Below are positions 1 through 6,000 of a stretch of DNA of 59,872 nucleotides, piece after piece. Every line of letters begins with the position of its first letter. Position 1 is the first letter of the stretch. The stretch is from Stx2-converting phage Stx2a_F349. Position numbers: made by a program. Location of the stretch: sequence record AP012530. One strand, given 5' to 3'.

Positions 1-3000
1 CGTAATCGTGAAAGAGGAAGGTAGGTTGCTTATCTGTGTCTGTCATTGTCTAGCATTGTCCAATGTAGTTAATTAACTGTCTGTTATAACTCGAAAAACA
101 ACCCTTTTTTCACCTGAGTATGTCTACGAACGTCAAATATAGTTGTTTACTGTGCGCTGTTGTCCATGTGATATTGTGTACCAGATGTGTACCAAACCAT
201 TATTTCTGAGCGTACCAAATATTATTTATGGCTATAAGCGACACAAAACTGCGTACTATTTATGGTAAACCATATTCTGGCCCACAAGAAGTGGCTGATG
301 CCGATGGCCTCAGCGTACGAATTTCACCGAAGGGGGTCATCCAGTTCCAGTACCGCTATCGCTGGCATGGCAAGCCTAATCGACTTGGGCTTGGTCGATA
401 CCCATCCCTGTCTTTGAAGGATGCCAGACAGATCACTGCTGACTTGCGAAAGCTCTATTTCTCAGGAACGGATCCACGCACTTATTTTGAAGAGAAGGTG
501 GAGAACTCCATGACGGTCGCCCAGTGTCTCGACTACTGGTTCGACAACTACGTCTCTACAACTCTCAGAGAAAAGACCCAAGCACTTTACCGATCAACGG
601 TTATGAAGCGCATGCATGACGCCTTCCCTAATCGTCCGGCATCTTCTATCACGGTTAAGCAATGGGTTGACCTGCTTACCGAAGAAGAAAAAGATAATCC
701 ACGCCGAGCAAGGCAGGTGCTAAGTCAACTAAGATCAGCAATTAGTTGGTGCATGCGGCGTCAGTTGATAGATAGTTGCGCAATTATGAGCATCCAACCA
801 AGGGACTTCGGCTCCCGCGCTGAGGTAGGGGATCGGGTACTGTCGTATCACGAACTGGCTAAGATCTGGCTTGCTATTGAAAGAAGCCGTGCGTCTACGT
901 CAAATAAGCTCCTTCATCAGATGCTTATGCTGTGGGGGGCGAGGCTCTCAGAGCTTAGGCTGGCAACAAAGACAGAATTTGACCTGCTGGACAACGTATG
1001 GACCGTACCGAAAGAGCATAGCAAGATGGGTAATGTTATCCGCCGTCCAATCTTCGATCAAATTAAGCCTTTTCTCGAAAAGGCCATGACAACGTACAAT
1101 GATGTTCTTTTCCCTGGAGAAGACATAAACAAACCGATCAGCATCGCTGCAGCTAACCGATTCGTAAATAGAATAAGGGGAGGGATGGATCTAGGTTACT
1201 GGCGAACACATGATTTCAGAAGAACGCTTGTTACACGTCTGTCCGAGATGAATGTCGAGCCTCATGTTACTGAGCGAATGCTCGGTCATGAACTTGGCGG
1301 GATAATGTCCGTATACAATAAACACGACTGGATAGAGGCTCAGCGCAAAGCGTATGAGCTTCACGCTGATAAATTGTTCTGGCACATCAGGAGCATTTCT
1401 GATTAACGCCACCGTTAAGAATCCACCCTTCAACAGCTTCACGAAGGTATGATTTGGGGTGGGTTCTGACTGGCTTCGGAAATCCGTGCCGTTTGGTATA
1501 GTTCCAGATTGTCTGACGTGATGAAACACCGAGCTTGTTCATCACTTCTTTCTCAGGAATCAGGCTGGTATCGGTCATCTTAATTCTCCAGGCAAAAAGA
1601 AACCGCCATATAGCGGCTCTATCAGATATGAACAGGCCTCATCGAGTGTGAGGCGTTAGTCCTTGCGTAGCTCGCTGATTCTTCTGTAAGTCTCTGGTGC
1701 TTTGTTTCCGTGTATCTTCATTTCAGACTTCAACAGAGCAACGAGGGAATCCCATTCGTTGAGGATTCCTTTGAATGCCGGAACGCGCTTTGCAACCTTG
1801 TCGAATGAATCTCTGATTTCTGGAATCTGCTCAACAAGTGCAACGCATCGTCTGAAATCGGCTGCGTCATGTGGAGCACCGAAGCCATGACCATAGATAT
1901 TCTTTTTCAGGCCACATGCGATTGAGGCAAGAGTTGCGCTACTGATGCCGACATCGCCAGTTGATTGCCATTTCAAAACCTTCATAGCCAAATCTGACAT
2001 TTCTTGTCTCCATAAAACAAAACTCGCCGTAGCGAGTTCAGATAAAAGAAATCCCCGCGAGTGCGAGGATTGTTAGTTGCGCTCTGCTGCTGCCTTAGCC
2101 ATTACCATATCCACACAATTTCACCAGACATGATTCTCGCAATCACTATCATCACCAAAGTGATAATCACAACTTTAACTGGCGGCATCATTCACCATCC
2201 TGCTGCGGTGCTGCTGGATATACTTTTCTCATCCAATGCGTGGCGTCATGAATAACGAACTGATATTCATCATCAGTAAACATCGAGCCATCCCACTGTA
2301 GCCCGTCAAGAACACCTCTGGATGGAGAGAATACCCAGATATCGAAATCGTATTTCTCCGGCATTCGCTCACTACAGCTTATCCAACCATCCGGAGTTAC
2401 CGGAGAGTTGCCAGCCTTGCGCATGGCAATCTCCATGATTTCAACCATATCTCCTGGTGGAATTTTACAATGCTGACCAATATGCCTCTGCTGCCTGGCA
2501 TATTCGAGGATGTGCTCCAGCTTGATACGATTAATCATGATTTATCTCCCTGAAGCATGGCTTCGCGGCAGTCGTTCCAGCCTTCAGCATAATCACTATA
2601 CGCAAGAGGCCAACCGTTTCTGTATTCACGCGGCAACTTATCAGGCACTACCAGCGCTGGCGGCGCGGAGAATAGTGGTTTAGGTGATATTTCCGCACGT
2701 TTTGCGTATGCTTCAACTGTGTCAGGGTTAAACAGGATTATGTTTTCACCGCATTCTCACGCTATCGGTTCTGCTTCCAGCGATGCCAGTGCAATTTCAT
2801 AAGCACGGCGCTCAATATTGTCTCGAACGTCCAAGCTGCCTATGCGCTCTTTGATTTCTTTAATCAGTTCTTTGTCGGTAATAGTGGTCATGCCGCGTTT
2901 CCTTCTTTCTTATTAACAATTACACCGTCATATATTTCATTAAGGTGCCCTCTCAACTCCATGCGCCTTAATGCAGACAACATGTAATCGCATTCAACCT

Positions 3001-6000
3001 GCTTATTTCCAGTAAATGGCTTATCGTCAGGATTACCCCAACAGCAATTACCCTTGGGCCACCCATGTACTTTCCGTACTCTTCCGTTAACAACGTGAAG
3101 TAATCCCCAGCCAGGTGGTAAATCCTCAATTGAAATAATTCCCGGCTCACTAATAAAGAATCGCCAGTCGCCCATTCCAAGAGACGGATTTTTACGAAAA
3201 CGCTTTTTTCTATCTGCCAACAAGTCAGCACGAGAACATTTCGCCTCTATCAGGCATGATGCTGAATTTCTGAATCCCATAGCATCTGGCTGTTCTCCGG
3301 TACTGGTTACAGCTATAAAGCGGTCATGAAAACAAACCTTGAAACCGTTGCGCTTAAGGAACTTGTACGCAATCTGACAGAGTTCGCGGTGTGTTAACGC
3401 CATATCACTCTCCTTTGATGCGAATGCCAGCAAGCCAGTTTCTTATGCCGATATATTCAGCGTTCCTGAAACCGCTTTTTACATATATAAATGGCAAGCG
3501 AAGATTGTGACCATTGACTGCCAGGTAGTCTTTACAACCCTGTTCGGTGAAACAGCAGGTAACGAATTCATCAATATCTTTCACAGCAACGCGCCGCCAT
3601 TTTTCTGGTGGCTCTCGAAAGTTTTCATGAAGTAGCTCGAGACGACGACTATGGCGTTTATTGGCTTCATTGCCATCTTCGTCAACCCAGACAATCCGGT
3701 CATGGTCATAATCAGCATCAACAGCGATTTCGCGCTTTTGATACACACAAAACATGGGATCTGACGTTATTCGATTGTCCTGTGTTCGAATATTTTCACC
3801 GATGATGCCAAACGAATCTGGTGCAGATTTTGTCTGCATCTCTTCGATACGTTCAGCCATCGCAGCACACTCTTCAAAGTTGCTTAATGCTTTTCGCTCC
3901 CATTCGGCGCATTGTTTTTCCAGTTCTGCTATGCGCTTACTTCCATCCGCGATTACTCCCTCGTAATATTCACGCTGCTCGTTGAGTTTTGATTTTGCTG
4001 CTTCAAGCTCAACACGCAGCTTCCCAACCGTAAGCGCAATCCCCTCGTTCTCCTGGTCGCGGCGTTTGATGTATTGCTGGTTTCTTTCCCGTTCATCCAG
4101 CAGTTCCAGCACGGTAGCCGGGTTAGCCTCTGCTATGAATTCAGCGTTTGCATAAGCCTGAGCATCTGATTCAATCAGGCAGTTAACATGACATTCCGCA
4201 ATCACGCCACCGGGTTCTCCTTTCCATTTTTGGCAAACAAAAACTCCTGTTAAATTGCCGTGCTGGTTAACAGATGTATGCCCTACGATGTAGCTTCCTT
4301 TAGTTGCTTTTTCTGCCTTTTCACGCAGTGCCTGATAATTAATTTCGCTCACTTCGAACCTCTCTGTTTACTGATAAGCTCCAGATCCTCCTGGCAACTT
4401 GCACAAGTCCGACAACCCTGAACTGCCAGGCGTCTTCGTTCATCTATCGGATCGCCACACTCACAACAATGAGTTGCGGATACAGTCTGGTAGTTCAGGC
4501 GACGCATTTTTATTGCTGTATTGCGCTGTAATTCTTCAATTTCTGATGCTGAATCAATGATGTCTGCCATCTTTCATTAATCCCTGAATTGTTGGTTAAT
4601 ACGCTTGAGGGTGAATGCGAACAATAAAAAAGGAGCCTGTAGCTCCCTGATGATTTTGCTTTTCATGTTCATCGCTCCTTAAAGACGCCGTTTAACATGC
4701 CGATCGCCAGACTTAAATGAGTCGGTGTGAATCCCATTAGCGTTACCGTTTCGCGGTGCTTCTTCAGTACGCTACGGCAAATGTCATCGACGTTTTTATC
4801 CGGAAACTGCTGTCTGGCTTTTTTGATTTCAGAATTAGCCTGACGGGCAATGCTGCGAAGGGCGTTTTCCTGCTGAGGTGTCATTGAACAAGTCCCATGT
4901 CGGCAAGCATAAGCACACAGAATATGAAGCCTGCTGCCAGAAAAATGCATTCTGTTGTTGTCATGCCGGGTCTCTCTCGTTTGCTTCTGCTTTCGCCGCC
5001 ATCATTTCCAGCTTTTGTGAAAGGGATGCGGCTAACGTATGAAATTCTTCGTCTGTTTCTACTGGTATTGGCACAAACCTGACTCCAATTTGAGCGAGGC
5101 TATGTGCCATCTCGATACTCGTTCTTAACTCAACGGGAGATGCTTTGTGCATACAGCTCCCCGTTTATTATTTATCTCCTCAGCCAGCCGCTGTGCTTTC
5201 AGGGGATTTCTGATAACAGAAAGGCCGGGAAATACCCAGCCTCGCTTTGTAACGGAGTAGACGAAAGTGATCGCACCTACCCGGATATTATCGTGAGGAT
5301 GCTTCATCGCCATTGCTCCCCAAATACAAAACCAATTTCAGCCAGTGCCTCGTCCATTTTTTCGATGAACTCCGGCACCATCTCGTCAAAACTCGCCATG
5401 TACTTTTCATCCCGCTCAACCACGACATAATGCAGTCCTTCACGCTTCATACGTGGGTCATAGTTGGCAAAGTACCAGGCATCTTTTCGTGTCACCCACA
5501 TGCTGTACTGCACCTGGGCCATGTAAGCCGACTTTATGGCCTCGAAACCACCGAGCCGGAACTTCATGAAATCCCGGGAGGTAAACGGGCATTTCAGCTC
5601 AAGGCCATTGCCGTCACTGCATAAACCATCGGGAGAGCAGGCGGTACGCATACTTTCGTCGCGATAGATGATCGGGGATTCAGTAACATTCACGCCGGAA
5701 GTGAACTCAAACAGGGTTCTGGCGTCGTTCTCGTACTGTTTTCCCCAGGCCAGTGCTTTAGCGTTAACTTCCGGAGCCACACCGGTGCAAACCTCGGCAA
5801 GCAGGGTGTGGAAGTAGGACATTTTCATGTCAGGCCACTTCTTTCCTGAGCGGGGCTTTGCTATCACGTTGTGAACTTCTGAAGCGGTGATGACGCCGAG
5901 CCGTAATTTGTGCCATGCATCATCCCCCTGTTCGACAGCTCTCACGTCGATTCCGGTACGCTGCAGGATAATGTCCGGTGTCATGCAGCCACCTTCTGCT

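Follow-up and report, generated by a model that had tools for sequence, protein, structure and literature searches.

The exo-xis region has been studied in lambda and in Shiga toxin (Stx) phages, where it consists of a conserved cassette (orf61, orf63, orf60a, orf73 and ea22) with a mosaic distal part, and its genes have roles in modulating the lysis/lysogeny decision and in affecting host replication and the cell cycle (PMC10834534). Ea22 is pro-lysogenic, Stx-phage Ea22 proteins carry C-terminal domains that are mosaic, and DUF551 is a portable domain (PMC10834534). The distal exo-xis genes are not mentioned in the modelling paper of Donaldson (2021). Here, we describe the distal exo-xis genes of the Stx2-converting phage Stx2a_F349, based on a stretch of 59,872 nt (AP012530; the window, numbered from its first letter). 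A first-pass annotation had pointed to a tightly coupled minus-strand block between exo and xis that includes a nuclease-like protein, a DUF551-like protein and an open reading frame (ORF) interrupted by an in-frame TGA.

The locus is very probably the distal exo-xis accessory part of an Stx2c-type lambdoid prophage, containing a young Eaa-type pseudogene and a gene for a likely endonuclease. It lies between exo (5304–5984) on one side and an AlpA-type xis on the other, and by synteny with lambda and 434 the block would belong to the early-left (pL) operon. A stretch of 2,915 nt is 100% identical to phage 1717 (FJ188381) and Stx2a_WGPS4 (AP012538), 99.8% identical to phage 2851 (FM180578) and 99.0% identical to WGPS8 (AP012540), all of which are Stx2c-type prophages of E. 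coli O157:H7 and members of the genus Pankowvirus. The gene order agrees with the annotation of phages 1717, WGPS4 and 2851. This region has already been sequenced, published and annotated in Stx2c phages, and the pseudogene is flagged in public records; the new point, a modest one, is the nuclease fold of an unnamed protein of 171 aa.

The in-frame TGA of the Eaa-type gene

The interrupted ORF (118 codons) belongs to PHROG 5117, a family with about 1,600 relatives, one UniRef cluster of which is named 'Eaa protein'; its 118-aa product has no match in Pfam, NCBIfam or PADLOC. Codon 45 is TGA in the window. Across the 357 nt of the ORF, WGPS8 differs by a single base, having TGG (Trp45) at this codon. 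In a protein alignment of 28 homologues, Trp occupies the position in 21 of the 21 sequences sharing the downstream WECGENIILF, and the remaining homologues have a different mosaic segment there. To follow the allele, a 61-mer centred on codon 45 was searched against the phage collection and 5,426 complete E. coli genomes. Exact matches were found in four distinct phages (1717, 2851, WGPS4 and WGPS6) and in 109 of the genomes; the 16 exact-match rows sampled were from cattle, human or water isolates, and were O157 wherever a serotype was named. Five phages (WGPS8, YYZ-2008, VT1-Sakai, phi330 and phiSTEC801) have one mismatch to the 61-mer, and another 273 genomes are 95–99% identical to it, 98.4% being equivalent to one mismatch in the rows listed. 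Two genomes of this 95–99% band, O145:H28 and O111:NM, were opened and both have TGG.

No homologue inspected outside the lineage carries a stop at this codon, and no significant RNA structure was found 3' of the TGA (minimum free energy −17.8 kcal/mol, compared with −15.4 ± 3.2 for shuffled sequences; z = −0.75). Because WGPS8 and the homologues have Trp, the carriers form one lineage and no RNA structure follows the codon, the TGA appears to be a single recent, lineage-specific G-to-A nonsense mutation, clonally inherited in one Stx2c-phage lineage. The part of the ORF downstream of the TGA has no start of its own, as the first annotation had noticed, since the first in-frame ATG, GTG or TTG is a GTG at 2648, 37 codons before the end. 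Public records treat the gene in the same way: it is a pseudogene in the annotation of AP012538, has an 'internal stop' in the RefSeq annotation of O157:H7 FRIK2533, and is split into an 'N-terminal half' and a 'C-terminal half' in the record of phage 2851 (FM180578), the latter half beginning at 2735 with a CTG. Of the two origins first proposed for the TGA, a fresh nonsense mutation and a readthrough site, the former agrees with the TGG of WGPS8 and the homologues and with the confinement of TGA to one lineage, whereas the latter is contradicted by the TGG of the homologues, the absence of RNA structure on the 3' side and the existing pseudogene records. A simple pseudogene had been expected to show a sense codon in its homologues and to be a unique copy; the sense codon was found, but the copy is not unique, being common to a clonal phage lineage.

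That the TGA arose from faulty sequencing or assembly, or encodes selenocysteine, has a negligible probability, the in-frame TGA itself being all that speaks for either. Sequencing error is ruled out by the same base in four independently sequenced phages and 109 complete genomes, and the homologues have Trp at the position rather than Cys or selenocysteine. No hairpin lies 3' of the codon, and, as the TGA and TGG alleles have identical flanks, neither a selenocysteine insertion sequence nor any other co-evolved recoding signal is present.

One G-to-A transition would thus have converted Trp45 (TGG) of an Eaa-type gene to TGA, leaving a young pseudogene with no second lesion. In a K-12 reporter, Trp-tRNA competing with RF2 decodes UGA at a level of about 2% at 37°C and about 4% at 25°C (PMC10570021), and a trace of exactly wild-type protein from the TGA allele is therefore plausible. 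Such near-cognate decoding, at a few percent or less, would be the sole route to the full-length product and would be incidental, not programmed. Non-K-12 strains of E. coli have the efficient Ala246 variant of RF2, so that leakiness in O157 is expected to be below that of the K-12 reporters. This expectation counts against a second possibility, that the TGA is a selected leaky stop which yields little full-length protein and abundant 44-aa fragment, thereby tuning the dosage of a costly gene.

Several features are nevertheless compatible with a selected leaky stop. Of all nonsense changes, only TGG to TGA regains the wild-type residue when it is naturally suppressed (PMC10570021), and the base after the TGA is G and not U, which terminates strongly (PMC5289835). 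The frame downstream of the TGA is intact, with zero substitutions, in all carriers inspected, but the lineage is too young for this to speak for or against purifying selection. The persistence of the allele in at least 109 genomes with a perfect downstream frame, as a selected leaky allele would persist, weighs against a plain loss of function. However, clonal descent explains this persistence equally well, and all of these features would be expected just as much if a neutral change had arisen recently in a lineage that spreads clonally. In addition to the lack of a stop in homologues outside the lineage and of a stimulatory structure 3' of the TGA, the state of the adjoining gene makes selection doubtful: in phage 2851 a 5-bp deletion (CAGGT, window 3001–2997) truncates the 171-aa gene after K134, besides the shared TGA, and the occurrence of both lesions in one phage suggests relaxed selection on the Eaa-type/171-aa part of the block. 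We therefore consider a selected leaky stop very unlikely. Phage 2851 is said to have been found inducible and infective by Strauch and colleagues in 2008; if so, both the Eaa-type and the 171-aa genes are dispensable.

Translation of the TGA allele would end after a predicted helical hairpin of 44 residues. The AlphaFold2 (AF2) model of the intact 118-aa protein (pLDDT 70, pTM 0.40) is too weak to serve as a structure-search query; its layout runs from a helical hairpin (residues 6–39) through a small beta region starting at W45 and a linker rich in Pro to a helix at the C-terminus. As the modelled beta region begins at W45, the TGA would leave the helical hairpin alone. It could be argued that this fragment is the functional product, the truncation being a gain or change of function, for the hairpin appears self-contained ahead of the beta region and the family is highly modular, with N-terminal parts of 30–40 residues exchanged among homologues at a conserved 'IALASLEAEP' junction. 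Yet no protein of about 44 aa is among the 120 homologues listed, the shortest of which are fragments of 82–93 aa without the N-terminus; confidence in the model is low, and there is no sign of selection. A functional 44-aa product is accordingly rated most unlikely, and an inactivating nonsense mutation remains our reading of the TGA.

The Eaa-type family as a whole is a patchwork joined at linkers that are short and conserved (IALASLEAEP(I/V)A, L(F/Y)xAPPxxVVP and GWNxCRxAML), and many longer relatives are DUF551 proteins whose N-terminal portion is the Eaa-type sequence. An Eaa-type gene paired with a DUF551 gene was also found in prophages of O145:H28 RM13514 and O111:NM, located in the replication/right-operon or nin-type region. 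Compared with the window, the N-terminal ~30 residues of these two copies differ and the C-terminal 87 are identical, a pattern that points, by sequence, to shuffling of cassettes at the IALASLEAEP linker. The change from TGG to TGA itself is a clean single-base marker of the 1717/2851/WGPS4/WGPS6 lineage of Stx2c phages in O157:H7.

The 171-aa protein and its predicted nuclease fold

The 171-aa protein encoded next to the pseudogene has no match in Pfam, NCBIfam or PADLOC, and its PHROGs (9263 and 631) are families of unknown function. It is nevertheless common: 324 homologous proteins were found in a word-index search and 3,215 clusters at 50% identity in a hidden Markov model search (E ≤ 1e-3), and the gene is present in 931 of the 5,426 complete E. 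coli genomes (17%), including 250 places on plasmids. The plasmids that bear it are about 60–100 kb in size and are presumably phage-plasmids.

The first annotation had called this protein nuclease-like from a D...EAK motif, and both the conservation and the predicted structure uphold that call. In an alignment of 44 sequences that reaches down to about 35% identity, D40 never varies, and conservation is ≥90% at E37, P39, E53, K55, D60, D64, K67 and R70. In the AF2 model the core has the order alpha-beta-beta-beta-alpha-beta, with residues 1–115 mostly at pLDDT 70–93. P39-D40 opens the second modelled strand and E53-A-K55 closes the third, the arrangement of a D...(D/E)xK motif. A deeper profile of the family matches 3dnx (MmcB-like, SPO1766) with an E value of 1.2e-4, aligning the D...ExK-SRxDFxAD motif. 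This MmcB-like protein is the closest structure, the motif S-R-A-D-F-x-A-D after ExK being common to both, and structural neighbours of the model in BFVD include phage entries named 'MmcB family DNA repair protein'. A PD-(D/E)xK fold and motif are thus supported.

Two results argue against the assignment: the model is only moderately confident (mean pLDDT 72, with the C-terminal third below 65), and the protein is below the threshold of every Pfam nuclease family. It does not match PF06319 (MmcB-like) at E ≤ 0.01 or at E ≤ 1, and 12 of the 44 relatives match this family weakly (best E 2.9e-4). PF01870 (Hjc) likewise gave no match to the protein itself, with weak, sub-threshold matches to 25 of the 44 relatives (best E 1.3e-4), and Hjc chains in the PDB score E values of 0.2–0.4. 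Membership of PF06319 or PF01870 at threshold is therefore not supported.

The gene is found in various surroundings. A Morganella prophage has a homologue between NinB and NinG, and in Rahnella prophages the place is between P and Q; others are located beside an integrase and, in a metagenomic phage of virulent type, in an early cluster with DNA ligase and metallophosphatase genes. From these sequences, the gene appears to travel as a mobile single-gene cassette between early accessory regions, often with recombination genes close by. Caulobacter MmcB has been described as a PD-(D/E)XK endonuclease with a protective role against mitomycin C (PMC9578287). From the fold, the motif and the neighbours we infer that the 171-aa protein is most likely a Mg2+-dependent DNA endonuclease which uses D40, E53 and K55 and has intermediates of recombination, repair or replication as its substrates.

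Blocks of this kind may also be thought of as anti-defence or host-takeover modules, and the 171-aa protein in particular might have such a function instead of being an accessory of recombination and repair. Its early, highly mosaic accessory position, the movement of its homologues as single genes between nin, exo-xis and virulent-phage early regions, and its frequency in E. coli genomes and on plasmids would all fit. On the other hand, the PADLOC defence-system models gave no convincing match: five of the six block proteins had none, and the TraR-like protein had one match at chance level (E 0.009, 13 bits). Furthermore, MmcB, which among characterised relatives is the closest, is an endonuclease of DNA repair (PMC9578287), the recombination genes NinB and NinG are neighbours in other prophages, and the gene is broken in phage 2851. 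An anti-defence role is on balance unlikely, and no evidence supports either such a function or programmed readthrough at the TGA of the adjacent gene. It is quite unlikely that the family is a mobile accessory endonuclease with a role beyond generic repair (for example counter-defence, or the processing of intermediates of host or phage DNA early in infection) and that the TGA is, at the same time, a selected leaky allele.

Independent decay of the 171-aa gene in FRIK2533, where RefSeq/PGAP labels it 'frameshifted' (1885–2063 of the retrieved locus, window 3403–3225), was considered and rejected; its DNA does not differ from the intact ORF of the window, so that the label is an annotation artefact. 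In EDL933 and TW14359, another prophage copy of the gene is 514 nt long compared with 516 nt, possibly through a real 2-bp indel.

The endonuclease reading allows a common unnamed family (PHROGs 9263 and 631) to be annotated as MmcB/Hjc-like PD-(D/E)xK nucleases with predicted catalytic residues, and adds one testable enzyme to the exo-xis and nin accessory regions, which are poorly understood.

Organization and boundaries of the block

Direct reading of the sequence shows six minus-strand genes packed from 4570 down to 2102 (Table 1). The TraR-like and Ea22-like genes are joined by a GTGA overlap (4352–4349), the Ea22-like gene and the 171-aa ORF by TGAtATG (3407–3401), which has a one-base spacer and no overlap, and the remaining genes by ATGA overlaps (2891–2888, 2538–2535 and 2191–2188). 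A coupled operon was taken to be a run of genes on one strand in which each stop overlaps the next start or is separated from it by ≤1 nt, and all five junctions (three ATGA, one GTGA and one TGAtATG) are of this kind. The tight linkage originally described is thus real, but the forms given for it, ATGA or TGATG, were only approximately right, one junction being GTGA and another TGAnATG. The genes would be read as one polycistronic message, from the hairpin at 4648–4630 to the tL4 terminator at 2071–2020, which by analogy with lambda and 434 would be N-antiterminated, and ribosomes may be handed over from gene to gene by means of the 4-nt stop/start overlaps.

Table 1. Features of the Stx2a_F349 window and of two related loci
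Feature	Position	Strand	Remarks
Integrase	228–1406	+	strand opposite to the early-left genes
AlpA-type xis	1387–1578	−	3' end overlapped 20 nt by int
Terminator-like hairpin between ORF114 and xis	1600–1619	−	at the position of 434 t'I
114-aa ORF	1656–2000	−	own ribosome-binding site; 96% identical to 434 ORF114; PHROG 1229, function unknown
Two tandem intrinsic-terminator hairpins	2071–2050, 2039–2020	−	tL4 equivalent, downstream boundary of block
29-aa hydrophobic candidate ORF	2102–2191	−	ATGA-coupled to DUF551 gene; no family match
116-aa DUF551-domain protein	2188–2538	−	PF04448
118-codon Eaa-type ORF, pseudogene	2535–2891	−	PHROG 5117; in-frame nonsense codon
In-frame TGA, codon 45	2757–2759	−	TGG (Trp) in WGPS8; G-to-A at 2757
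171-aa PD-(D/E)xK-fold protein, MmcB/Hjc-like	2888–3403	−	fold and motif; predicted catalytic D40/E53/K55
315-aa Ea22-like protein	3405–4352	−	PF13935; GTG start overlapping TraR stop
73-aa TraR/DksA-type C4 zinc-finger protein	4349–4570	−	PF01258; lambda orf73 position
Terminator-like hairpin upstream of TraR-like gene	4630–4648	−	upstream boundary of block; 8-bp stem, then TTTTATTGTT; consensus match
Lambda_thermo (cIII thermoregulator element)	7374–7432	−	Rfam, 88.5 bits; intact
Eaa-type + DUF551 pair, O145:H28 RM13514	2409–3103 of retrieved locus		
Eaa-type + DUF551 pair, O111:NM	2382–3103 of retrieved locus		

The TraR-like, Ea22-like and DUF551-like gene calls were all confirmed by Pfam scores above cut-off. 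The TraR-like protein scores 37.8 bits with PF01258 (cut-off 24.9), matches phrog_54 ('DksA-like zinc-finger protein') with an E value of 6e-26, and has the four Cys residues of a CxxC...CxxC arrangement in the sequence CCECGD...CRTCASC; its score with the narrower NCBIfam model TIGR02419 (55.1) is under the cut-off of 59.7, and RefSeq names it 'TraR/DksA family transcriptional regulator'. The Ea22-like protein (phrog_250 and phrog_3205) scores 141.6 bits with PF13935 (cut-off 27) over the full model, and its Ead/Ea22 N-terminal and coiled-coil part (residues 2–145) is followed by a variant C-terminal domain. In the DUF551 protein, residues 51–104 match PF04448 with 40.6 bits (cut-off 22).

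The DUF551 gene is ATGA-coupled to the pseudogene, and ribosomes halting at the TGA would stop 219 nt short of its start. It is probably still expressed despite this upstream stop, since it has its own Shine-Dalgarno sequence (GGGAG) 7 nt upstream. If N antiterminates the pL transcript, as it does in lambda, little Rho polarity is expected.

The last ORF of the block, a possible hydrophobic peptide, is 29 aa long and not 28 as first given. By tblastn it was found in only six distinct, near-identical phages, and the copies of EC.P3 and E212 differ by two amino acids; the ORF is without annotation in every record inspected and has no match in Pfam, NCBIfam, PADLOC or PHROGs. Its coding status is unproven because the copies are too alike to offer any divergence usable as a test.

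Downstream of the block, a 66-bp segment (2010–2075) that is 89–100% identical in lambda, 434, 933W, HK630, P22-like phages and many Stx phages, with different genes on its flanks in different phages, is annotated 't-L4' in the 434 record (M60848.1) and looks like a conserved boundary or a recombination junction between modules. The 114-aa ORF beyond it has no match in Pfam, NCBIfam or PADLOC. Since the tL4-like hairpins stand between the block and this ORF, and a t'I-like hairpin lies beyond it, the coupled block is one terminator-bounded cassette and ORF114 is a separate cistron. The range 1656–4570 originally given as a single coupled block has to be shortened accordingly, its part at 1656–2000 being an uncoupled seventh gene on the far side of the two tandem hairpins. 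At the other boundary, a 31-aa ORF (4577–4672, minus strand) spans the upstream hairpin between a 93-aa ORF and the TraR-like gene and is probably not a gene. An Rfam scan of window positions 1–9000 gave one match only, the lambda cIII thermoregulator, which is located outside the block. The int and xis genes of the window are convergent, a layout different from that of lambda.

Comparison with known systems

The 171-aa protein differs from the MmcB family in having an extra conserved C-terminal region (G-W-G-L-L, K-P-F-x-x-N-K-Q-x-E-C and A-L-R-R) and in being phage-borne, whereas MmcB is encoded by an SOS-regulated chromosomal gene. From archaeal Hjc (PF01870) it is set apart by sub-threshold scores and by a predicted structure that is nearer to 3dnx.

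The block resembles the exo-xis regions of lambda and the Stx phages in i) its position between exo and xis, ii) the 73-aa TraR/orf73-like zinc-finger protein, iii) the Ea22 protein with its Ead_Ea22 N-terminal and coiled-coil part, and iv) the mosaic diversity distal to ea22, a neighbourhood in which DUF551 is portable. In contrast to lambda, which has ea8.5 distal to ea22, the phage described here has the gene for the nuclease-fold protein, followed by the Eaa-type pseudogene, a DUF551 gene that stands alone and a 434-type ORF114, and the C-terminal domain of its Ea22 is a non-lambda variant. Phage 434 (M60848.1) shares the 96% identical ORF114, a tL4 at the same relative position and a hairpin at the t'I position. 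The window differs from 434 in being without ORF55 and in having xis and int of the AlpA/P4-integrase type, with int on the opposite strand.

Phages 2851, 1717 and WGPS4 are the closest of all, with 99.8–100% identical DNA and the same TGA, annotated as two halves or as a pseudogene. Phage 2851 differs by the extra 5-bp deletion in the 171-aa gene, and WGPS8 has kept the ancestral TGG.

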